Below are positions 42,382 to 54,009 of a stretch of 64,000 nt of DNA, one piece after another. The stretch is from Nostoc sp. DedSLP01 (GTDB taxonomy: Bacteria; Cyanobacteriota; Cyanobacteriia; Cyanobacteriales; Nostocaceae), in assembly GCA_034530875.2 (NCBI GenBank), contig JAVRCJ020000034.1, positions 1 to 64,000 on the forward strand. Reading direction: 5' to 3'. Each line of letters begins with the position of its first letter. Position 1 is the first letter of the stretch. The position numbers and the translations under genes were made by a program. The notes beneath the pieces were generated by a model. It saw only the letters and a list, made by a program, of their open reading frames with translations. It had not been told where the DNA came from and ran no database searches.

Positions 42382-42915
42382 ATGAAACCTAACTTAGAAG
42401 ATATTACCAACAGTCCTCATCGCCGTCAAATTCTCAAAACTGCTCTTATCTTTCTGGCTGGCTTAACTACAACATCAGTCACATATTTTTTCAATCCCAA
42501 ATCTACAAAAAAAGCACAAGCAATTGTTGTGCAACGGCCCAATGAGTTTGAACTCAAAGGCAAAGGTACTCAAATTAAGTATTCTATCCTGAACGAAGTT
42601 CCACAGCTTGATTACAGAACTCAAAATACTTTCGCTCATTTCAGTGGCGATGAAATTCAAAGATTAACTACTGATATTGGAACACTAGTTACGGTCATTC
42701 TCAGCAAACCGAACCCTAATGTAGGAGGAAATACGCTGAAACTCAGCTTTCTATTACCCACTATCAACTTACCTATCGGTAGTGTAGAAACTACTGTCCA
42801 AACTCAAGCAATTCTCACTACCGAAAAAACATCAGGATTAATCCGAAGACCAATATTTGGACAATTTCAATCATACGAAACTTTCATACTTAATGGAACT
42901 GCTAGATACCGTTAG
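42382..42915 (+). CDS. Hypothetical exported beta-rich protein with Tat-like signal
   Basis: RRQILK followed by a hydrophobic stretch and AQA. Confidence 0.7.
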   Translation: MKPNLEDITNSPHRRQILKTALIFLAGLTTTSVTYFFNPKSTKKAQAIVVQRPNEFELKGKGTQIKYSILNEVPQLDYRTQNTFAHFSGDEIQRLTTDIGTLVTVILSKPNPNVGGNTLKLSFLLPTINLPIGSVETTVQTQAILTTEKTSGLIRRPIFGQFQSYETFILNGTARYR

Positions 42916-43371
42916 AGCCATCTGAATCTGAGTTCGGCAATCTTTTCCATTAAGTCACAAGTGACTTTATTTACTCGTAAGCGGCGATCGCTAGTTTCAA
43001 AGAGTCCTTCTAATGATATCCAAATGCGCGATCGCTAATGTTAGTTTTTCCAGATAGGGCAATACTCTGCAAAACTGCTCCGCGCGCTACTTCAGCAAGA
43101 AGGGAACTCTTAACAGGGAGGAACGGCCTGTTAAGAGTTCCCCGTTCCCTCTCTATACCAGAAGTCAGAAATCAAATTGGATTACTATTTATGAGTCGTA
43201 AATATTTTTGATAAATTTCTGCGAAAAATTTGAAATTAAGTTTGATAACTAGGTAGTAGACCCTACTTATTGATGCATGAAACATCAACTTATGAATTCG
43301 ATAATTGGGACTTCAACCAGCCAAGGAAATCTCCAGAATACTTCTGGAAGTATTCACAAAGGAGATTGTTG

Positions 43372-44019
43372 ATGATAAAAATGCACGCTGTACGCGACCT
43401 GAATCAACAACTATCTCAACTTGTTGCCGAAGCCTGTTCCTATCCAGCAAAGAGTTTGATACGGCGGCAAAAGCTGAATGAGATAGTTAGAGTTGTGATG
43501 AAATCAGGCAAATTATGGAGAGAGAACACACCTTACTATAACGATGCTCTGCAACAAACTTGGTTGTTTTTCTGCCGGAATCTAGAGCAATATAATCCAG
43601 AGCGTTGTAGCGTAATCACTTGGCTCGACAATTGCCTTAAGTGGCGATTGCAAGATTTCCGCACTTGGGAAGCGAAGAATCAAGCTAAAAATGTTTCTAG
43701 TTCTACCTTAGAAATTGAGGAAATAACAAACACCATCGAAAATTTACCAGCAGATCCAGAGATTCCGCCAATTTTAGAAGAAACTTCTCAATGGGCAATA
43801 ACAGATCCAGATGGAGATTTAGCCACTACTCACGTCAAAGGACGGCCTGAAGTAACTTGTCAAATTTTAATTCTACGACGCTTACCTCCAGAAACCCCTT
43901 GGAAGGATATTGCTCAGGAGTTTAACTTGCCCCCATCAACCGCACCGAATTTTTATAAACGCGAATGTCTGCCTCGGTTGCGAAATTTTGCACTCAGACA
44001 GGGATATCACGAAATTTGA
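43372..44019 (+). CDS. Sigma-70-like factor (cyanobacterial ECF-like type found with DUF1822)
   Basis: YYNDALQQTWLFFCRN...YNPE...VITWL region-2-like segment; C-terminal HTH WKDIAQEFNLP; AGGAG RBS 7 nt before ATG 43372. Confidence 0.75.
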   Translation: MIKMHAVRDLNQQLSQLVAEACSYPAKSLIRRQKLNEIVRVVMKSGKLWRENTPYYNDALQQTWLFFCRNLEQYNPERCSVITWLDNCLKWRLQDFRTWEAKNQAKNVSSSTLEIEEITNTIENLPADPEIPPILEETSQWAITDPDGDLATTHVKGRPEVTCQILILRRLPPETPWKDIAQEFNLPPSTAPNFYKRECLPRLRNFALRQGYHEI

Positions 44020-44072
44020 CATTCAAGCAGAGATAACTCAAAGAAGGAATATTTGGGAGAAGAAAAACTACT

Positions 44073-44996
44073 ATGATTCATAGTACTGAGAATATAAAAG
44101 AAAAATCTATTCCAGTGGCTATCACTCAAGCAGCACTGAGAATAGCACGACAATTTGCCGAGGAGCAGCCAACTCTAGAAAAGAAAAAGCAGGTTTATCT
44201 TAATACCCTGGCTGTATGTATTGTGAATGACTATATGCAAATGATGGACATTGCTACTGACTTGAAAGGTAGCGACAGTTGGAATCCAGCTATGCGCCTT
44301 TATAGTGATGTTGCAGATTTGAAATTGACTAAATTAGGCTACTTAGAATGTCGGTGTGTTAAGTCTGGTGCAGAGATTTGTTACATTCCACCAGAAGTCC
44401 CAGACGATAGAATAGGTGTAGTTGCAGTTGAGTTAGACACAGAGTTTCAAAAAGCGATTCTGGTGGGGTTTGCTAAAACAGTAAAATCTGGCGAGATGTG
44501 CATAGATCGGTTGCAAAGTATTGACGACTTACTTACACACTTAGATCGCCTTGAAAGTAACCAAAGCGAAGTAAACCTAAGTCGATGGTTGGAGAATACT
44601 TTTGCCGTAGGTTGGCAGCCCATTGAAGAAATTTTAGCTCCAAAAGCACTACAACCAGGTTTTCGTTATGGAACTGGAGTAACGCGAAGTAAACTAATCG
44701 ATTTAGGGTTAGAACTACCAGAACAAATCGTAGCCTTAATTGTCACAGTTACGCCAATAAGTTCAGTGGAAATCCATTTGAAATTCCAGATACATTGTAC
44801 CGATGAGGAAGTCTACTTACCTAACGATCTGATTGTAAAGGTATTAGATGAAAAGGGAGTTACTGTCATGGAAGCTCATGCTAGAAGCGGTAGTACTCAC
44901 ATAACACTAGAATTTCAAGTTCAAATGGGAGAACATTTTAGCGTGACCATAGAATTAGGAAATAATAGTATTATTACGGAAAAATTTTTTGTTTAA
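44073..44996 (+). CDS. DUF1822 family protein
   Basis: A-x2-FA...KKQVYLNTLAV...SDSWNP...VADL...LECR and VNLSRWL-x3-F-x2-GWQ motifs. Confidence 0.85.
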   Translation: MIHSTENIKEKSIPVAITQAALRIARQFAEEQPTLEKKKQVYLNTLAVCIVNDYMQMMDIATDLKGSDSWNPAMRLYSDVADLKLTKLGYLECRCVKSGAEICYIPPEVPDDRIGVVAVELDTEFQKAILVGFAKTVKSGEMCIDRLQSIDDLLTHLDRLESNQSEVNLSRWLENTFAVGWQPIEEILAPKALQPGFRYGTGVTRSKLIDLGLELPEQIVALIVTVTPISSVEIHLKFQIHCTDEEVYLPNDLIVKVLDEKGVTVMEAHARSGSTHITLEFQVQMGEHFSVTIELGNNSIITEKFFV

Positions 44997-45021
44997 TTAC
45001 ATACATTTTCGGTTATTAATT

Positions 45022-47433
45022 ATGCAGAAATTGGTTGTTTTAAAGCTAGATGGTGATTTAGCTCAGGGGGTAAGAGTGATGTTGGAGATTGGGGCAGAAA
45101 GAGATCGCCCCACTATAGAAGTTCGAGGCTACCTTCCCCCCCAACCAGAGATTATCGCAGACTATAACCTTTGGCAGGCAACCTACCGCAGCTTGGAAAA
45201 TTTTCGCATCACACCTATAAGTATTAGTGTTGGAAATTCTCTATTTGAGCATTTGAACAAATGTCGCAAATTAGAGGAGAAGTTGAGCGAGCAAATAAAT
45301 AGTTGGCTCAATTGTGAGTCTTTTCGCCCAGCTAAGGAAAAATTACTCAAACAATTAATGGCTGATGACACAATGCGGATATTAATCAAAACAGATGATA
45401 TTTGGTTGCGTCGTCTTCCTTGGCAACTATGGAATTTCTTTGAAGATTACTCAAAAGCAGAAGTTGCCCTCAGCGGTATAGAGTATGAATATCTGCCAAA
45501 AACAAAAACACTCATTGCTAAATCTCACGTAAAAATTCTCGCTATTTTAGGTAACAGTCAGGGAATTTTTATTGATAAAGATAGAGAAATATTAGAAAAA
45601 TTACCAAATGCAGAAATAACTTTTCTTGTAGAGCCACAACGCGATCGTATCAACGATCGCCTTTGGGAGCAAGACTGGGATATTTTATTTTTTGCAGGTC
45701 ACAGTTTTAGCCAACAAGATGGGAAAAGCGGTAAAATTTATATTAACAAAACTGATTGCTTAACAATTGATGAGCTAAGGTTTGCGCTAAAGAAAGCTGT
45801 CAGTAGAGGATTGCAATTAGCTATTTTCAATTCTTGTGATGGCTTAGGATTAGCCCATCAATTAGAAGATTTGCATATCCCTCAAATTATTGTGATGCGG
45901 GAGCCAGTGCATGATTTGGTAGCGCAGGAATTTTTAAAGAATTTTTTGGACAAATTTGCCAGTGGTGAGTCTCTACACTTAGCAGTACGAGAATCAAGAG
46001 AAAAATTACATGGTATTGCAGATAGATATCCCTGCGCGATGTGGTTACCTGTAGTCTGCCAAAATCCAGCAGCAGTACCGCCAACTTGGAAAGACTTTCT
46101 CAAAAAGCCAGAAACCGTAAATAATAAACTTCAACGAAATAATTACATTACCGAATTCCAGTCTCGATGGTTTAAAGTTCAAAAAGTGCTTTTGTTGAGT
46201 TTAATAATCGCTATTTTAGTAATGGGATTGAGAACATTTGGCTTGTTGGAGTTATCAGAACTAAAAGCTTTTGACCAGTTCATGGGGATGCGGCCAGAGG
46301 AAAAATCAGATTCGCGTTTCTTGATAGTTACTGTTGATGAAGCCGATATTCAGTATCAAAATCAAATGAAAATGAATATGCGATGGTCTTTATCAGATGG
46401 AGCACTAGCTCAACTGTTGAAAAAATTGGATCGCTATCAACCAAGAACTATCGGTTTAGACGTTTACCGCGATTTTCCTGTAGACCCGAACTTTGCAGAT
46501 TTAGGAGCCCGTCTCAAACAAGATAACCGCCTTTTTGCTGTATGTAAAGTTCCTGCACCTCTTGATGGTGCCCCAGAAGGTACTCCTCCACCTCCTGAAG
46601 TCCCAGAAGAACGTTTAAGTTTTAGCGATTTTGTCGCAGATAATTATGAAATTGCTCGCCGTCAGCTTTTGCACTTGACTCCTCCTGTGACATCTCCCTG
46701 TAGTGCCAAATATTCTTTCAGCCTGCAAATCGCACTTCATTACCTAGAGGCAAAAGGTATTAAAGCAGATATTACCCCAAAGGGGCAGTTGCAGATTGGG
46801 AATGTCTTGTTTAAGCAATTAAGAACTTACACTAGTGGCTACCAAGGAGTAGATGCAAAAGGTTACCAACTATTGCTCAATTATCGCTCTCTCCCGTCTT
46901 TAGAAAATATTGCTCAGCAAGTGTCTCTCAGAGATGTCCTTAACGAGCAGATAAACCCTCAATTACAGGAGTTATTGAAGGATCGTATTGTTTTGATTGG
47001 TGTCACTGCTCCCACTACTACTGATTATTGGAAAACTCCTTACAGTGCTAAAGCACCACTCAATCAAAAGCAGATACCGGGTGTTTTTGTACAAGCACAC
47101 GCCATCAGCCAAATTATCAGTGCTGTTCTAGACCGCAGACCTCTACTTTGGTGGTGGCCGAGGTGGGTGGAAGCGCTATGGATATGGGGATGGTCAGCTA
47201 TTGGAGGAACTCTAGCATTGTTGATTCGGCAGCCACTTTACTTAGGAGTGGCTGGAGCTACAGCGCTATTGTCACTATATGTAATTTGCTTTGGTATTTT
47301 TATACAAGCAGGATGGGTGCCACTCGTTCCTGCGGCTTTGGCGTTAGTGGCTACTCAAATAGTAATTGTATATGCGATCGCAGAGCGTTTTGGTTTTCAA
47401 GCTAGCAAAAGAAATCCGGATTACGAATTATGA
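45022..47433 (+). CDS. Transmembrane CHAT (caspase-like) protease - CHASE2 sensor
   Basis: LPW, ILFFAGHS (His), FNSCDG (Cys), one TM, CHASE2 (IGLDVYRD, DRIVLIG, PGVFVQAH), then three TMs. Confidence 0.9.
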   Translation: MQKLVVLKLDGDLAQGVRVMLEIGAERDRPTIEVRGYLPPQPEIIADYNLWQATYRSLENFRITPISISVGNSLFEHLNKCRKLEEKLSEQINSWLNCESFRPAKEKLLKQLMADDTMRILIKTDDIWLRRLPWQLWNFFEDYSKAEVALSGIEYEYLPKTKTLIAKSHVKILAILGNSQGIFIDKDREILEKLPNAEITFLVEPQRDRINDRLWEQDWDILFFAGHSFSQQDGKSGKIYINKTDCLTIDELRFALKKAVSRGLQLAIFNSCDGLGLAHQLEDLHIPQIIVMREPVHDLVAQEFLKNFLDKFASGESLHLAVRESREKLHGIADRYPCAMWLPVVCQNPAAVPPTWKDFLKKPETVNNKLQRNNYITEFQSRWFKVQKVLLLSLIIAILVMGLRTFGLLELSELKAFDQFMGMRPEEKSDSRFLIVTVDEADIQYQNQMKMNMRWSLSDGALAQLLKKLDRYQPRTIGLDVYRDFPVDPNFADLGARLKQDNRLFAVCKVPAPLDGAPEGTPPPPEVPEERLSFSDFVADNYEIARRQLLHLTPPVTSPCSAKYSFSLQIALHYLEAKGIKADITPKGQLQIGNVLFKQLRTYTSGYQGVDAKGYQLLLNYRSLPSLENIAQQVSLRDVLNEQINPQLQELLKDRIVLIGVTAPTTTDYWKTPYSAKAPLNQKQIPGVFVQAHAISQIISAVLDRRPLLWWWPRWVEALWIWGWSAIGGTLALLIRQPLYLGVAGATALLSLYVICFGIFIQAGWVPLVPAALALVATQIVIVYAIAERFGFQASKRNPDYEL

Positions 47434-48275
47434 TCGGCAAAAAATTATTACTTTTCCCAAGGCTAAAACTTGCTTACATTGTCTTTTTAGTACTTCTTAG
47501 CTTGCCAACTTATTCTCCAACGGTATCGGCACAGTTTACTAATTCAGCTAACAAGCCTTTTTTTGGTACACCCATCAACTCTACGCGACCGAACTTTCCA
47601 GATAACGGTATACCTACCGGCCGCCGCAAAGGAGGGACAAGCAGAGATGCTTGTTCTGTCCTCAGTATGCCTGTTACTGCCATAGTCCCTGGTGAAGAAA
47701 CTTTGAGTTCAGCCCAAAAAGGAACGTTACCTCAAACTATCTCCTCAAAATCTTTCCTAGCATTAACAGTTAGTGAATATCCAATCTTTTGGTTTTACAT
47801 TCCCAATTTGCCCCCAAATTTACACTCTGCTGAATTTGTTTTGCTCAATGAAATAGAAGATGATATTTACCGTAGTCGGCTAACCCTACCTGAAAAGCCT
47901 GGAGTTATCAGCATTAGCCTTCCGCAACAACCAAAATATTCTTTAGATGTAGATAAAAAGTATCATTGGTATTTGAAAGTTTATTGTAACGATCTACGAA
48001 AAACATCTGGGTACTTTTATATTGATGGTTTAGTGCAACGGGTTGCGTTGACTCAGAAGCTTGAGAGCCAGTTAAAAGCAGTAAAACCAAGAGAATATAT
48101 AGCTTATATTGATAATGGTATTTGGTACGATGCCATAACAAATTTAGCTAGCCTCCGGAGTAGCAATTTACAAAATGATACCCTACAAAAAGATTGGGCT
48201 AACTTATTAAAATCTGTTGGCTTGCAAGACATTGCTGAAGAACCCATTGTTCGGTACTATAAGGCTGAGGAGTGA
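47430..48275 (+). CDS. DUF928 domain protein, exported
   Basis: Signal peptide; P-x-GRR-x-GG-x-SR, P-x-FWFYIP, GIWYDA and W-x2-LL-x-SVGL motifs; ATGA overlap with the upstream gene. Confidence 0.88.
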   Translation: MIGKKLLLFPRLKLAYIVFLVLLSLPTYSPTVSAQFTNSANKPFFGTPINSTRPNFPDNGIPTGRRKGGTSRDACSVLSMPVTAIVPGEETLSSAQKGTLPQTISSKSFLALTVSEYPIFWFYIPNLPPNLHSAEFVLLNEIEDDIYRSRLTLPEKPGVISISLPQQPKYSLDVDKKYHWYLKVYCNDLRKTSGYFYIDGLVQRVALTQKLESQLKAVKPREYIAYIDNGIWYDAITNLASLRSSNLQNDTLQKDWANLLKSVGLQDIAEEPIVRYYKAEE

Positions 48276-48355
48276 TACCAATTCGCAATTAAAAAACTTA
48301 GATACAGTAAAGCTTACAGGGTTTACATCTGTATCATGTTTTTCGTGAAATGGTA
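48276..48355. mobile_element. MITE with TGA direct repeats, one of which is the DUF928 stop codon
   Basis: TGA-TACCAATTCGC ... GTGAAATGGTA-TGA. Confidence 0.55.
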
Positions 48356-48420
48356 TGATTGTAAGAATTCAGCAGATTTAACTGAGAATCTTCCCAATCA
48401 GATGAAAGCAATTTGGTAGC

Positions 48421-51102
48421 TTATAACCAATTACCTACTAACACATAAGGTGCCCAGAAATAAGGACGTTTTTCATTATTGAGAACAGCTATTTGAGCGT
48501 GTTGGAGTGCTTGGGCTTTAGTCACCCCAGTTTTTAGTTCTCGGTAGAAATAACTCATAAATTTGCTGCTAAACTCATCATCTACTGACCATAAGGTTGC
48601 GACGATACTGCGCGCTCCTGCTCGTACCGCCACCCCTGCTAATCCTAAAGCAGCTCGTTTATCTCCAGTTGCTGTTTGACAAGCGCTGAGGACGAGTAAT
48701 TCAATGGCATTAGACTGACTAGAGCCACTTTGCCGAAATAAATTCACAAAATCTTTTACCTTAACCAGTCGATCCCAAGCCAGAATAAAGGTTTCTTCGG
48801 GGTTGGAACTAAACTTCCCGTGGGTTGCTAAGTGGACAACAGAAAAAGGAACCTTTTTTATTTGATTTTGAAGGTTAGTTTCGGTAAATGTTTGATTAAA
48901 AAGTTGTTTAGTTTTAGAGACTTCAGACTGAATAGCTTCTAATTCACGCGCTACATTTTTGAGAGGAGGAAACTCTAGATTTCCTATTTGGCGTTTCTCG
49001 CTGACTCCGCCACTTAAGACGTTTAACTTTACCTGTTGCAAAGGTTTCGGATTGGTTAGTTGTAGACCTGGAGTGAGAGCGATCGCATATTTCTCCACCA
49101 AATATTTTTGCTGTTCTTTATCGTAGAGAACTGCCATCGGAATATTCCGTAAAGATCCATCTAGTACGAATACTAAAGTTTTAATATCACTTTTGACTAA
49201 CTCTGCTTCGGCTGGTCGGATTAACCAGTCATATAACTTTTGGGACTGCTTTTTCACTTGAAAAGTTCGGGTGATATCCCGTAAATATTCTCCCAAATCT
49301 AATATGGTTTTCTCAACTGTATCTCGGTCTACAATCGTCGTATAGTGGCGAAGTTCTTGTTGGCCGGGCAACTTAATAATAATTTCTAAGCGGTCAGCCA
49401 AAATAATTGCATAAATAGTTGCTGCTGACTTATCTCGATCGACTACTCGATCTATCTCTACCTTGGCATCCAAGCAGGCCGATCCAAAAAAGTTTTCTAG
49501 TTCTGCCAATTGTAGAGATTCCATTGTTTGACGCGCTTGCTTAAGATTTTCTTGAGTAATTTGTTGGTTGCCAGTTTGTTGCAAGCTCAACTCAAGAAAC
49601 TCCCGATAGACGGGTTCTACACTTTCCTTGAAGGAAAACTGCACGTCTGGATGCATGGCAACCAAATCGCTACTCAAAGACTGGAGAATGTTTACAGCTT
49701 GACTGTAATTAGCAAGAGCTTTTGTAACATTTCCCTGAGCTTTATAAAGCCTTCCTAACTGCCATTGCCAACGATAGGCAATATCTGATGCCTCAATGGT
49801 TTCGGCTAGATTTAGGGCTTGTTGGGTGAGGTCTTGAGCATCGCTGTATTGCTGGGTCTGCTCGTAAAGTCCACCCAGATATCCTAAAGCATAAGCTAAT
49901 GCACGAGTATCTTTGATATTTCTAGCTTGTTGAACAGCAGTGGCTAACACCTGACCTATTTGTGTCCGCGAAGGAGCGTTGGAGATGTCCGACTGTCTTA
50001 GCTGCATTAAATTTTGAGCAAAATTAATTTGAGCATAAACTGCTGCTCGACTCGCTGGGAGGTTGATAATTTCAGGCTGAATTTGAGTCCACAATACCTG
50101 AGCGTCTGACCCCGATTTAGTCTCCACCGATAAGTCCAACTGATTGAGTTGTGCTTGAATTCGAGTGATTAATGAGGTGGATGTTGCTTGTGCCTGTTGA
50201 TAAAACTGCAATGCACTCGGAAAGTCGTGCTGGGCTTGGGCTGTTGTGCCTAAACTCACATACGATGCAGCTATTTCCTCGGGAGATTTTAGCTTTTGAG
50301 CGAGGGTTAAAGTTTGTTGCAAAATGCGTTGGGATTTGTCTAAATCGCCAACTACTCGCAACACATTGCCAAGGCTACGCAGTGCCGTAGCTTTGAGTAA
50401 AGAGTCTGGTTGAGTTTGGAGATTTTTTTCTAGCTGGGTTAGTGTTTCGTTAGCCCTATGGTAAAGACCTAAGTATTGCAGGGCTTGGACTTGATTGATT
50501 AGGCTGCCAGTAATTCCAGCATTATTACCTACTTGTTTGTAAGTCGCAGTAGCTTGCTCCCAAGTAGTCAGTGCTTGCTCTGCTTGCCCTAGTGCTAATT
50601 GCAGATGTCCTTGAGTGTTTAAGACTTGTGCGAGAATGAGTTTGGATTCTTTGGTTTGCAGTTGATTGTTTTGCAGAATTTCTAAGCTTTGTGCGATCGC
50701 AAAACTTCCCTGTTGCCATTGTCCAAGTTGCTGGAAAGCCAATGACATTAAGCTCAGCACTTTGGCTTGATTAAACTTATCCCCAAGAGATTGATAAACT
50801 TGGGCTGCTTGTTGCCAAACCTTAGCTGCATCAGCAAACTTTTCTTCTTGATATAAACTTTTACCTTGTTGCGCTAGTTGTGAAGGGTCTGGCAGACTTT
50901 GGACAATAGGAGCATTTTCTGGAACTTTCGCTAAAACAGGCGCTTGCATAGTCCCGATTACCAACAAGTTGAGCAATTGTCCCCATAAAATTACCAGTAC
51001 ACTTGCTCCCACGTATGAGGGTTTCCAAAACCAACGGATACTACGAAAAAAACCGGGATGTTTTCTGGCTATATCAACATAAAAGTAACGTTTACGGGAC
51101 AT
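48421..51102 (-). CDS. TPR-CHAT domain protease
   Basis: TPR repeats, YRWQWQLG, HLATHG (His), VLSACQTA (Cys) and PYFWAPYVLVGNWL; N-terminal hydrophobic segment. Confidence 0.92.
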   Translation of the reverse strand: MSRKRYFYVDIARKHPGFFRSIRWFWKPSYVGASVLVILWGQLLNLLVIGTMQAPVLAKVPENAPIVQSLPDPSQLAQQGKSLYQEEKFADAAKVWQQAAQVYQSLGDKFNQAKVLSLMSLAFQQLGQWQQGSFAIAQSLEILQNNQLQTKESKLILAQVLNTQGHLQLALGQAEQALTTWEQATATYKQVGNNAGITGSLINQVQALQYLGLYHRANETLTQLEKNLQTQPDSLLKATALRSLGNVLRVVGDLDKSQRILQQTLTLAQKLKSPEEIAASYVSLGTTAQAQHDFPSALQFYQQAQATSTSLITRIQAQLNQLDLSVETKSGSDAQVLWTQIQPEIINLPASRAAVYAQINFAQNLMQLRQSDISNAPSRTQIGQVLATAVQQARNIKDTRALAYALGYLGGLYEQTQQYSDAQDLTQQALNLAETIEASDIAYRWQWQLGRLYKAQGNVTKALANYSQAVNILQSLSSDLVAMHPDVQFSFKESVEPVYREFLELSLQQTGNQQITQENLKQARQTMESLQLAELENFFGSACLDAKVEIDRVVDRDKSAATIYAIILADRLEIIIKLPGQQELRHYTTIVDRDTVEKTILDLGEYLRDITRTFQVKKQSQKLYDWLIRPAEAELVKSDIKTLVFVLDGSLRNIPMAVLYDKEQQKYLVEKYAIALTPGLQLTNPKPLQQVKLNVLSGGVSEKRQIGNLEFPPLKNVARELEAIQSEVSKTKQLFNQTFTETNLQNQIKKVPFSVVHLATHGKFSSNPEETFILAWDRLVKVKDFVNLFRQSGSSQSNAIELLVLSACQTATGDKRAALGLAGVAVRAGARSIVATLWSVDDEFSSKFMSYFYRELKTGVTKAQALQHAQIAVLNNEKRPYFWAPYVLVGNWL

Positions 51103-53209
51103 GGCACTTGGCTGATATCAAGGCTGGATTATGGGGTGTAGTAGTTAATGTAGAAGCTGTTAGGACTACCTCACCCTTATCATTAGTTGCCCATTCAGTA
51201 GCTTCCACAATTTGAGTAGGTGGACTAACTTTTATCGGATTTGGAAAAGAGGTAGTAGTAGGAGGGTTATTTTCGCCTGAAATAGGCGTATCTAAATCCA
51301 TCCAAACTGCATCATTGTTTAGGGGAGCGTTGGGGTTGGGTGGCAAACCACCTCGTCCAATGACTACAAACTTGCTTTGAGCAGAACTTGAACTGTTGCA
51401 GGCTTGAGCGATTTCGGGAGCTGGTGATATTGTTGGTAAATTTATTAAACCACTGTTGAGGTCGATATCAGGTGTGTTGATTTCCACAGTTCCATTAAGC
51501 TCAGGACTTCCGCCAGTAGCAGTGATGTCACTAAAATCTGTTCGATTCTGGCGGCGTTGAATACCATAGATACCGGAAGTACGTATGTCAACTCTTCCAC
51601 CTTTTCCTTGAGATGCATTAGCAGTTATATCACTATTCTCTCTTGGTATAGCTACAATCAAGCCCGACCGTGCATTAATTATGATATTACCGCCGTTTCC
51701 GCGTGCGTTGGTAGAAATTTCGCTGTTGCGACGCAGTGACAATAACTTTTGCAAGTTCAATTTTATATTGCCACCATCACCGGAGTTAGCTCGACCACTG
51801 AGCTTGCCTTTGTTATCCAAATTAATAGAACGAGCAGTAATTTCCAAATCACCTGCTTGGTTTGTGCCTAGACTGCTCACAGTTATGTCAGCGCCATTTA
51901 AGACATTTAATTCTTCAGCTTTAATTATGATGCTTCCCCCCTTTGTAGTAGACTCTCTAAAACGGGAAGCCGAAATGCTTGCTCCATCCTGAACAATCAA
52001 CTGCCTAGTTTCAATCCTCAATTCTCCGGCCTTTCCAATGCCTTGTGTGAAAGCAAACAAGCCACTGGGGTTACCTTGTCGTGAGGTTCCAATGAGTTTG
52101 ATCGAGTCTGTTGCGGTTACGGATAACTTTCCTCCATTTCCTTGACTAAGAGCGGAAGCTGAAATATACGCCCCATCTTGAACAATCAACTGTCCAGTTT
52201 CAATCTTCACTTCTCCAGCATTTCCAGATGCTACGGTATCACTTAACAGATAGCTTCCTCCCAGAAGTTTTACTGACTCCGATGCCTTCACCAGTAATGT
52301 TGCTCCCGATTTTGAGCCTACCGTATTAACCGTAATAGCTGAATCATCGGCGAGTGTAACGCGCTTGCCTTGTATTTGAATAGCACCACTGCCTTGACCA
52401 CTAACAGTTACTGTAGTAGTTTGGGTAAGAGATACATTTGCTCGCGCTACATTATCAGGAAAACTTAAGCGGAAATTGTTGTTATCAATGTTCAATCCTA
52501 CCGTTCCTGTTCCTGCTAATCCTCCTAATTCGATTCGACCGTTTGGAGCTTGCAGTGTTGCTCCTTCTAAATTCACATCGCCTCCCAGTAGAACTAAACT
52601 CCGACTTGCAGGAACGGATAGTGCAATTGGTCCTGTATTAACTTGAATCGGGCTAATAGGCTCAGATGCAATTTGATTAAATAGAAATGCAGAAGGATTG
52701 ACACTCAGCAAGGGGTTAAGCGGATTGACGGGTGAAGTCATGGAAAATTCTGCACCGCCCGAAAACTGGATCGCACTGGCTGTTGTTCCGATAAACGAAC
52801 CGCCAAGATTTAATTTGGCATTTTTTCCAAATATGATGCCCTTGGGATTAATTAAAAAGAGATTAGCTTGGGCTTGAAGTGTTCCCTGGATATCAGAGGG
52901 GTTTGCTCCTGTAACTCGCACCAAAATATTGTTGATACCAGAGGCGCTATGAAAATTTACTATCTCTTGATTTTTAACACTAAAGTTGCTGAAACTATGG
53001 AAGAGATTTGTATTCCCAACGGTTGTACCGCCTGTAATTTGATAATTTTTGCCGTCGGTTAACTCCACTTTAGTTCCCAAAGAGGGATCGGCAGTGACCT
53101 CCTGAGCATATGTGCGATCGCCTCCTTCTATGCCAATCTCACCCGCTAAAATCACCAAGCCCGATAACCCTAAATGGTAACTGCAACTCAAGCAACTTCT
53201 TAAACTCAC
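51092..53209 (-). CDS. Filamentous haemagglutinin N-terminal (TPS) domain exoprotein, TpsA-like
   Basis: NLFHSF, NILVRVTG and LINPKGIIFG TPS motifs; G-x-GG/AG beta-helix repeats; C-terminal GRGGLPP-x-P. Confidence 0.92.
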   Translation of the reverse strand: MSLRSCLSCSYHLGLSGLVILAGEIGIEGGDRTYAQEVTADPSLGTKVELTDGKNYQITGGTTVGNTNLFHSFSNFSVKNQEIVNFHSASGINNILVRVTGANPSDIQGTLQAQANLFLINPKGIIFGKNAKLNLGGSFIGTTASAIQFSGGAEFSMTSPVNPLNPLLSVNPSAFLFNQIASEPISPIQVNTGPIALSVPASRSLVLLGGDVNLEGATLQAPNGRIELGGLAGTGTVGLNIDNNNFRLSFPDNVARANVSLTQTTTVTVSGQGSGAIQIQGKRVTLADDSAITVNTVGSKSGATLLVKASESVKLLGGSYLLSDTVASGNAGEVKIETGQLIVQDGAYISASALSQGNGGKLSVTATDSIKLIGTSRQGNPSGLFAFTQGIGKAGELRIETRQLIVQDGASISASRFRESTTKGGSIIIKAEELNVLNGADITVSSLGTNQAGDLEITARSINLDNKGKLSGRANSGDGGNIKLNLQKLLSLRRNSEISTNARGNGGNIIINARSGLIVAIPRENSDITANASQGKGGRVDIRTSGIYGIQRRQNRTDFSDITATGGSPELNGTVEINTPDIDLNSGLINLPTISPAPEIAQACNSSSSAQSKFVVIGRGGLPPNPNAPLNNDAVWMDLDTPISGENNPPTTTSFPNPIKVSPPTQIVEATEWATNDKGEVVLTASTLTTTPHNPALISAKCHVP

Positions 53210-53346
53210 AAAACTTCTCTCCTAACCTTTGAAAGTTACTTAATTGGAAGCTAGAACACGACTTTAGTAATACTTGTGGAAATCTTCTACCCCTGTGTTT
53301 ATAAGAAACTCTGCTAGCGGGGTTAGGTTTTTGATTATTACTTGTT

Positions 53347-54009
53347 TCAAGCCAACACTCGATAAACTTGACTCCAGTCAAGGCCAGGGGCTAGCGAAGC
53401 TATTTGCTGTCCATTGCTAAAAAGATTACCAGTATTTGAATCGTAGCTCAAAGGATCAAAATCGGAATTAAAAGTTTCGTAAGCTGATATATTGTAATTT
53501 TTTACAGTATAATTTTTTCCGATACCAGAGGTAAGTTTGAAATCTTTGCTGGGTTGAGCAACAGCAGGGGTAAGTTTTAAGTCTTTGCTAGATCGACCAA
53601 GAGCAGGAGTAAGTTGGAAATCTCTGCGGGATTGAGTAAGAGCAGGGGTAAGTTTTAAATATTTGCTCGATAGAGCGCGAGCAGCCGATTTCAACTCAGC
53701 GATACTTATATTAAAAATACCTTGCAAAACAACAGTATCAGACGATCCAGGAGGAAGGGTAGTAACTAAAAGTATATCTTCGCTAACTGAGAAGTCTGTA
53801 ATTCGATCGATACCTCCACTTAAGTAATTCAGGACAAAGGTATCTCTACCACCACCACCAGTAAGAATGTCATTATCAGCTCCTCCCACTAAACGGTCTT
53901 CACCCGAACTGCCTATTAAAGTGTCATCACCTCGATAACCGTATATTTGATTACCTCCATCCGAAACTGCTAGCCAGTCGTTTCCAGAGGTGCCGTCAAT
54001 CTTTGCCAC
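53347..54009 (-). CDS. Small RTX/hemolysin-type calcium-binding protein
   Basis: Gly/Asp nonapeptide repeats (GDDTLIG, GEDRLVGG, DNDILTGGGGRDTF) and IDRITDF; GTG start after GGAG. Confidence 0.8.
   Translation of the reverse strand: MAKIDGTSGNDWLAVSDGGNQIYGYRGDDTLIGSSGEDRLVGGADNDILTGGGGRDTFVLNYLSGGIDRITDFSVSEDILLVTTLPPGSSDTVVLQGIFNISIAELKSAARALSSKYLKLTPALTQSRRDFQLTPALGRSSKDLKLTPAVAQPSKDFKLTSGIGKNYTVKNYNISAYETFNSDFDPLSYDSNTGNLFSNGQQIASLAPGLDWSQVYRVLA

Follow-up and report, generated by a model that had tools for sequence, protein, structure and literature searches.

Predicted anti-sigma role and candidate cut site of a DUF1822 protein beside a CHAT-CHASE2 receptor in Nostoc sp. DedSLP01

Background

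Proteins that combine an EACC2 domain and a caspase-like domain with variable C-termini, CHASE2 among them, were catalogued by Kaur, Iyer, Burroughs and Aravind (2021, eLife; PMC8195603), mostly beside genes for a sigma factor of extracytoplasmic function (ECF) type and DUF1822. Supplement file 3 of that paper lists Fischerella loci with EACC2+CASPASE+CHASE2, a TM+beta_rich (transmembrane, beta-rich) gene and TPRs+CASPASE. We analysed a locus in a 64,000-nucleotide stretch of Nostoc sp. DedSLP01 (GenBank assembly GCA_034530875.2, contig JAVRCJ020000034.1, positions 1 to 64,000; the window), with genes for a sigma-like protein, DUF1822, a CHAT-CHASE2 receptor, DUF928, a TPR-CHAT protease, TpsA and a small RTX-repeat protein. 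By its architecture and gene neighbours, the core (sigma-like, DUF1822 and EACC2-CHAT-CHASE2) belongs to the EACC2-caspase systems already catalogued.

In Anabaena PCC 7120, HetF cuts its partner PatU3 in trans at T-N-Y-R117/S-P-E-T, after R117, and R117 mutants stay uncut (PMC9457339); PatU3 inhibits HetZ, an ECF-type sigma factor (PMC13342950). Three further papers (PMC9679502, PMC5587647 and PMC2853523) contain mentions only, and no mechanism, in their accessible parts. Published passages on slr1753, a possible counterpart of TPS-CHAT fusions, likewise had no bearing on the mechanism. An earlier note on this DNA knew of no functional description of the pathway that it proposed; no bench study was found in the literature searched, which mostly excluded subscription papers, but the gene set was already in print (PMC8195603).

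The reading that we favour, and regard as fairly probable, is regulated anti-sigma proteolysis: the CHASE2 sensor-CHAT protein would cut DUF1822 after Arg198 and so free the sigma-like factor. Its starting point, namely the genes, the catalytic dyads and the conserved gene order, is read directly from the DNA.

Predicted complex of the sigma-like protein and DUF1822

Complex prediction, which the earlier note had put forward as a check, supports binding of the two proteins: the pair scored 0.87, compared with 0.01 for the best of 3 controls. Among 157 solved complexes 116 came up to the mark used, as did 2 of 215 mismatched pairs, a calibration that is rough here because own alignments were used. 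The runs agreed in at least 86% of contacts, and the predicted local distance difference test value (pLDDT) of the partners was at least 83. On the sigma side the predicted interface comprises residues 26-69 (with D58, Q61, W64 and L65) and 131-213, covering region 2.2 and sigma4; on the DUF1822 side it comprises residues 10-158 only, and the listed interface includes neither the Ig domain nor Arg198. Sigma region 2.2 binds the polymerase core. The N-domain of DUF1822 is thus the predicted sigma binder and DUF1822 a predicted anti-sigma factor, which would clamp region 2.2 and sigma4 and block polymerase binding.

The sigma-like protein is, with moderate confidence, a divergent ECF-type sigma-like factor, because three methods (sequence profile, structure match and Foldseek ranking) agree. 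A profile of 58 homologs matched SigK (E value 7.9e-4). When the structural model (pLDDT 82) was compared with 48,161 chains, the best matches were the sigma2 domains of SigW, SigC, SigK and sigmaE (Z 9.4-8.5, root-mean-square deviation (rmsd) 1.8-3.2 over 79-95 residues), although Z values below 10 are by themselves not decisive for helical domains; the sigma4 match was weaker (Z 6.4-6.5). Foldseek gave no match at E<=0.001, yet its first 27 rows were nearly all sigma factors. The protein has the domain make-up of ECF (group IV) factors, sigma2 and sigma4 only, with a region 2.2 motif in which D/E58 is kept in 55 and Q61 in 47 of the 58 homologs. The Pfam Sigma70_r2 match stayed below threshold (E 0.09; 13 bits, cut-off 24), and in NCBIfam there was no match and no curated sigma-70 family cut-off was passed. 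The closest named relatives of the gene are from Mojavia (93%) and Nostoc (~80%).

Candidate cut site in DUF1822

The DUF1822 model (pLDDT 90.6) consists of an alpha/beta N-domain, a low-confidence linker (block 191-200, pLDDT 52) and a beta sandwich C-domain. Arg198 is the lone conserved residue of the indel-rich linker of 22-47 residues and is kept in 57/58 homologs; the consensus reads (A/S)-F-R followed by S, G or T, with the cut predicted after R. An aromatic residue precedes the Arg in 51/58 linkers (shuffled sequences: 8.9 on average, at most 17, in 1000 shuffles), and the full aromatic-Arg-small pattern occurs in 40/58, compared with 3.1 in shuffles. Arg198 is likely to be the CHAT cut site at which the sigma-like factor would be switched on. 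A paralog in this genome reads YAFR-SPET, close to the HetF site in PatU3, and the Arg that corresponds to PatU3 R117 is kept in 146/149 PatU relatives, with the site matched by motif. TRADD-N proteins that bear the DUF1822 C-domain were found at 2/11 loci, and both have the linker Arg.

The C-domains of PatU and DUF1822 appear to be weakly related. HHalign gave 52% (E 1.4e-4), with six control profiles at 5.6% or less, and the top two ESM Atlas matches of the DUF1822 C-domain outside PF08852 were PatU clusters (0.76; a lead only). An initial comparison with 17 sequences had given 2%, which was not significant. In P0149, P0230, P0255 and P0159 a whole PatU domain is fused behind a part that by eye resembles either NTPase domains or a trypsin-like protease or pentapeptide repeats. 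At two loci (L114:18273-19001 and L125:18241-18999) a protein that weakly matches the DUF1822 C-domain carries R-S motifs before that part, and behind it a further CHAT gene (811-815 amino acids) lies upstream of the sigma gene.

In the receptor, H227 and C272 are present in all 70 aligned homologs (100%), the module formed by residues 1-350 is conserved, and the CHAT part matches HetF at HHalign 99.4%. Its N-domain was assigned to EACC2 by architecture and neighbours. Under regulated anti-sigma proteolysis, the Ig-like C-domain of DUF1822 would dock on this EACC2-CHAT module and the linker would be cut at F-R198. Because that cut lies outside the sigma interface, release of the sigma-like factor would need general proteolysis of the DUF1822 N-fragment, as proposed for PatU3 and for Csx30 (PMC10028731).

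Alternatively, the receptor CHAT could cut itself, and the freed EACC2-CHAT piece would displace DUF1822 or act otherwise, DUF1822 being an adaptor and no substrate. Self-cleavage of EACC2-caspase was proposed by Kaur et al. (PMC8195603), an autoproteolytic route was likewise proposed for DdvA (PMC11506125), and the conserved residues of the EACC2 region, which include R62 (85%), can be counted on the same side. We consider this improbable: it leaves unexplained why a lone Arg is conserved in an indel-rich linker, like the mapped HetF site, and HetF cuts its partner in trans (PMC9457339).

Two gene modules joined at the receptor

Gene neighbourhoods were surveyed at 80 loci, chosen by score from the 150 that were listed among 260 matches to PF08852 across 121 genomes. 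These loci are kin and span at most 20 kb each; they yielded 80 DUF1822 genes in 79 of the 80 loci (one locus lacked a DUF1822 open reading frame (ORF), another had two). Receptor outputs were labelled with our own small profiles. As for the conserved synteny that the earlier note made a condition, DUF1822 follows the sigma-like gene at every one of the 24 loci located with the sigma-like protein; most are from Nostoc, and some are truncated at contig ends. Behind a short sigma gene, 50/51 DUF1822 genes have a CHAT gene no more than three genes away, and 47 have it directly beside them. The 62 CHAT receptors differ in their C-terminus, with 45 of CHASE2 type and 17 others. DUF928 is next to 43/45 CHASE2-type but 0/17 other receptors, and a TPR-CHAT-type protease (27/45 against 0/17) and TpsA (24/45 against 0/17) occur in the loci of the former only.

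A second survey was anchored on DUF928 and took the 45 top-scoring loci. CHASE2 was present in 29 and not in view in 16; the 29 CHASE2 proteins were 7 CHAT-type, 12 cyclase, 2 histidine kinase, 2 Ser/Thr kinase and 6 other. TPR-CHAT and TpsA each occurred in 6 of the 22 non-CHAT CHASE2 loci, and DUF1822 in only 6/45 loci. In this genome, too, TpsA, TPR-CHAT and DUF928 flank an AAA-CHASE2 gene (contig C53) and a CHASE2-kinase gene (C61). The seven genes had been taken for one pathway; the counts point instead to two modules that can be separated and that meet at the CHASE2 protein. Because DUF928, TPR-CHAT and TpsA track CHASE2 across outputs, and sigma and DUF1822 track CHAT, we assign sigma and DUF1822 to EACC2-CHAT and the other three to CHASE2 on the basis of gene neighbourhood. 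DUF1822 matches were found in 79/121 sampled genomes of the class and DUF928 matches in 39/46; six EACC2-CHAT-CHASE2 receptors are encoded in this genome.

The envelope genes would form a module of their own that supplies the input to CHASE2 receptors, DUF928 being the partner of CHASE2; this is the weakest step of the proposed mechanism, and that the signal is an envelope or neighbour-contact cue is a guess. Export signals had been claimed for three proteins. In a hydropathy scan (threshold 1.6), the sole basis of our topology and export calls, N-terminal hydrophobic stretches were found in DUF928 (6-24) and TPR-CHAT (31-49), but none over 1.6 in TpsA. DUF928 is likely an exported partner or pro-ligand of CHASE2, and TPR-CHAT likely an exported or membrane-anchored protease. 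In DUF928 a Gly-rich stretch ends in Arg before an invariant Cys (R72 in 91% and C75 in 98% of 58); this motif occurs in 75/98 distinct DUF928 proteins, with Gly next in 56, compared with 4.5 (at most 13) in shuffles. TpsA has a TPS domain and a conserved C-terminal Cys...GRGG domain. GRGG is present in 26/36 separate TpsA proteins and in 0/7 TPS-CHAT fusions; because it is absent from the fusions, a docking or activating role would fit this domain. From the preference for Arg, the conserved Arg-Gly motifs of DUF928 and TpsA are candidate sites for the exported protease.

No ShlB/TpsB gene was found on the contig of the window (C34); five ShlB matches lie on C62, C1, C61, C14 and C4, and TpsA may be exported in trans by a distant ShlB. 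A TPS-CHAT fusion of 1837 amino acids (C1:308511-314024), with TpsA and protease in one chain, adjoins a ShlB gene at C1:315114. The RTX protein had been counted as a member of the system. As a part it is not supported: RTX genes lie within 10 kb of 3/12 DUF928 genes, with a background of 8%, and RTX was near 7/45 CHASE2-type, 3/18 other-CHAT, 1/17 no-CHAT and 0/40 DUF928-anchored loci, counts that are low because the search pattern missed the RTX protein of the window itself.

The secreted arm could instead be the output, with the sigma-like factor switching on TpsA, TPR-CHAT and other exported proteins; ECF sigma factors often control genes next to them, which counts in its favour. When 22 upstream regions from close relatives are aligned, conservation begins abruptly at a GCGAAA-N15-TGATAA block, possibly an autoregulated promoter of the sigma-like gene. 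The exact pattern occurs 4 times in the genome, and none of these precedes the TPR-CHAT, TpsA or DUF928 genes. Across 63 diverse sigma loci no shared promoter motif stood above shuffles apart from HIP1, and sigma-70 and terminator scans were at chance (28 against 31.6 and 13 against 10.7, respectively). The missing block argues against an output role, as does the occurrence of the same trio, with no sigma gene, next to CHASE2 receptors whose output is a kinase, a cyclase or AAA (C61, C1 and C53). We regard it as unlikely, although an input and an output role could coexist.

Tentatively, and with low confidence, the observations can be combined into a two-compartment, Arg-specific cascade like Toll-Spaetzle. 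TpsA would sense an outside cue and switch on the exported TPR-CHAT through its C-terminal Cys/GRGG domain; DUF928, clipped by this protease at G-T-S-R72, would become an unmasked ligand of CHASE2 receptors with interchangeable outputs, here the caspase-like cut of an anti-sigma factor built on a former nuclease. The tail made up of the Arg and the Ig domain would serve as a portable tag for cleavage, and the HetF-PatU-HetZ switch of heterocysts would be an offshoot of the family.

Fold of DUF1822

Residues 35-166 of DUF1822 matched the nuclease I-Ssp6803I (2ost; Z 9.9, rmsd 2.9, 115 residues) and the N-domain also matched Holliday-junction resolvases (Z 8.4 for 1ob8, and 7.2), i.e. its model has a PD-(D/E)xK nuclease fold; residues 203-307 matched Ig-like folds. 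In the model, a loose linker thus connects this nuclease-fold domain with an Ig-like domain, and a TPR label does not fit. D82, E92 and R94 of the nuclease-like motif are kept in 55, 56 and 57 of 58 short-type homologs, respectively. With motif positions assigned without residue-level superposition, Arg94 stands where the motif has Lys (E-x-R, not (D/E)-x-K), and Val48 sits at what we take to be the place of the helix-1 Glu. In the long DUF1822 type the places aligned to D82/E92/R94 are taken by hydrophobic residues, and its sigma partner is still kept. This suggests that a nuclease fold was reused as a binding scaffold, leaving room for a nuclease role.

Searches for relatives gave no DUF1822 match in a sequence search of the PDB, and no PHROGs family below E 0.02 for 58 DUF1822 sequences. 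In a PADLOC scan of six proteins nothing was found for DUF1822, and generic TPR plus one weak match were obtained for TPR-CHAT only. In the ESM Atlas, the N-domain fold is shared by standalone 179-192-residue proteins in largely viral clusters (template modelling score 0.73-0.82) and by Melainabacteria TonB_2 fusions (0.73-0.84 for both groups together). Acidobacterial zf-HC2 proteins (zinc anti-sigma type) have a domain like the DUF1822 Ig domain (0.70); the Ig tail may be a wider anti-sigma module.

That DUF1822 is a protease-activated nuclease effector in defence or cell death, with the sigma-like protein as its partner or antitoxin, would account for the nuclease and resolvase matches, the conserved D82, E92 and R94 and the standalone, largely viral relatives, but is very unlikely in view of the E-x-R replacement, Val48, the long type that keeps its sigma partner without the motif, and the lack of a PADLOC match for DUF1822.

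Evidence for and against the mechanism

The proposal of the earlier note that DUF1822 is an anti-sigma factor is partly supported, by the conserved gene order, the predicted complex, the candidate cut site and the HetF-PatU3-HetZ precedent. Several points weigh against regulated anti-sigma proteolysis. The sigma assignment is moderate, with Z below 10 for helical domains and no family over its cut-off. The conserved D82, E92 and R94 lie outside the predicted sigma interface and are not explained by the model. The P1' residue in the window is Tyr, a minority residue (6/58 homologs), and HetF favours Ser at P1', S118A slowing the cut (PMC9457339). Arg198 could be conserved as a structural or docking residue. 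Hidden Markov model searches between DUF1822 and PatU were not significant either way (best E 0.23 and 1.3), the N-domains of the two differ, the sigma-like protein compared with HetZ gave only 7.5%, and the EACC2 region has no match to the HetF N-terminus. Finally, 16/23 DUF1822 genes behind the long type of sigma gene lack a CHAT gene at a distance of up to three genes (7/23 have one), and the survey drew on kindred loci chosen by score.

Features of the locus

All seven ORFs were found where the earlier note had placed them, by ORF calls and Pfam (Table 1). The ATGA overlap of the CHAT-CHASE2 and DUF928 genes, an overlap of TpsA and TPR-CHAT (11 nucleotides) and the His/Cys dyads of both CHAT domains (H761/C808 in TPR-CHAT) were likewise confirmed. 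The operons, a grouping that rests on layout and not on RNA, are tightly packed at most gaps but not at the 137 nucleotides between RTX and TpsA. They are convergent in the window, but this layout is not conserved: among the 24 sigma-like loci TPR-CHAT is oriented as in the window in 3 and oppositely in 13. Of the receptor topology CHAT-TM-CHASE2-3TM, the helix before CHASE2 was recovered (389-407), and two of the three behind it passed the hydropathy scan. In the mechanical call the sigma-like ORF starts at TTG 43270, upstream of the chosen ATG.

Table 1. Features of the locus, with positions in the window
Feature	Position	Strand	Details
Promoter-like block GCGAAA-N15-TGATAA	43208-43256	+	Conserved; ~150 nucleotides 5' of sigma-like ATG
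Sigma-like gene	43372-44019	+	215 amino acids; ATG 7 nucleotides behind AGGAG
Sigma-like protein layout			Sigma2 ~1-108; loose linker 109-133; then sigma4-like part
DUF1822 gene	44073-44996	+	307 amino acids; Pfam DUF1822 4.5e-62
Codon of DUF1822 Arg198	44664-44666	+	Predicted P1 of CHAT cut (P-G-F-R/Y-G-T, cut after R)
CHAT-CHASE2 receptor gene	45022-47433	+	803 amino acids; Pfam CHAT 4.3e-12, CHASE2 4.3e-67
Receptor layout			EACC2-type N-domain; CHAT (H227, C272; probably cytoplasmic); transmembrane helix; CHASE2 (probably periplasmic); C-terminal transmembrane helices
DUF928 gene	47430-48275	+	281 amino acids; Pfam DUF928 1.7e-54
TPR-CHAT gene	48421-51102	-	893 amino acids; Pfam TPR plus CHAT 8.5e-63
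TpsA gene	51092-53209	-	705 amino acids; Pfam TPS 2.8e-51
Small RTX-repeat protein gene	53347-54009	-	220 amino acids; 39-nucleotide tandem repeat; HemolysinCabind 1.9e-11

A 177-amino-acid ORF just upstream (42382-42915) begins with a twin-Arg-like stretch, matched nothing in Pfam or NCBIfam, and is not kept beside the system in related loci. A perfect 16-bp inverted repeat at 43102-43142, upstream of the sigma promoter block, is probably its transcript end. Elsewhere in the genome (C19:51539-52378, C31:58974-59642 and C15:127612-128580) two short sigma-like genes stand without a DUF1822 gene, and one operon of DUF1822 and receptor lacks a sigma gene; these might pair in trans.

RNA data came from a single sample of a relative, in four runs, as contigs only and with 8-12% of words, and do not represent expression of this genome. 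In contigs from 3/4 runs, window position 43704 is joined in frame to 44577, so that sigma codons 1-111 continue with DUF1822 codon 169 onward (sigma2 followed directly by the Arg-linker and the Ig domain), a junction that may stem from DNA or from RNA. The skipped part is covered by other contigs of the same data, and there was no sigma2-Ig or sigma-DUF1822 fusion among 22 protein search matches.

Comparison with known systems

New here are the predicted sigma:DUF1822 complex, the DUF1822 fold, Arg198 as candidate bond, the two-module split and the DUF928/TpsA Arg-Gly motifs. A named substrate and bond (DUF1822 Arg198) make the mechanism directly testable. If it is true, caspase-like receptors gate a set of cyanobacterial sigma factors that has been overlooked, the switch of heterocysts belongs to a wide family, and the CHAT proteases of cyanobacteria, which are usually taken for enzymes of cell death, transduce signals.

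With the EACC2-caspase systems (PMC8195603) the locus shares the constant N-domain and caspase, the variable C-terminus and the neighbouring ECF sigma and DUF1822 genes. DUF1822 is a TPR protein in that paper, but a nuclease fold plus Ig domain by our model; self-cleavage is proposed there, whereas a cut in DUF1822 is predicted here. The anti-sigma role, the cut site and the role of DUF928 and TpsA are proposed here, and none is given in the accessible part of that source.

Orthology to HetZ, PatU and HetF was ruled out: hetF, hetZ and patU orthologs are present away from this locus, on contigs C28 and C6, and the NF045509 score was 21.6 bits (cut-off 1200). The HetF-PatU3-sigmaHetZ system of Anabaena PCC 7120 has in common a membrane CHAT protease and an Arg-specific cut, here predicted, in a partner encoded behind a divergent ECF-type sigma gene (PMC9457339, PMC13342950), together with a similar site; the C-domain of the partner may be weakly related. 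HetF has periplasmic TPRs and an unlinked gene (PMC9457339, PMC13342950), whereas the protease here is a linked CHASE2 receptor; PatU is without a match to the nuclease-fold domain that DUF1822 has; and HetZ has 400 amino acids with insertions, compared with 215 in the sigma-like protein.

In type III-E Csx29-Csx30-CASP-sigma, a CHAT protease cuts the anti-sigma factor away from the sigma-binding N-domain and the C-domain is needed for recognition (PMC10028731), as predicted here. That system is cytoplasmic, RNA-triggered via Cas7-11 and cut at 427-429 without an essential residue (PMC10028731), and homology to this locus is not shown. DdvA-DdvS of Myxococcus xanthus likewise couples a periplasmic TPR-CHAT protein to an ECF sigma factor, but through a single transmembrane anti-sigma factor with a zinc domain and an RseP step (PMC11506125), whereas the candidate anti-sigma factor here is soluble and its protease would be the receptor itself.

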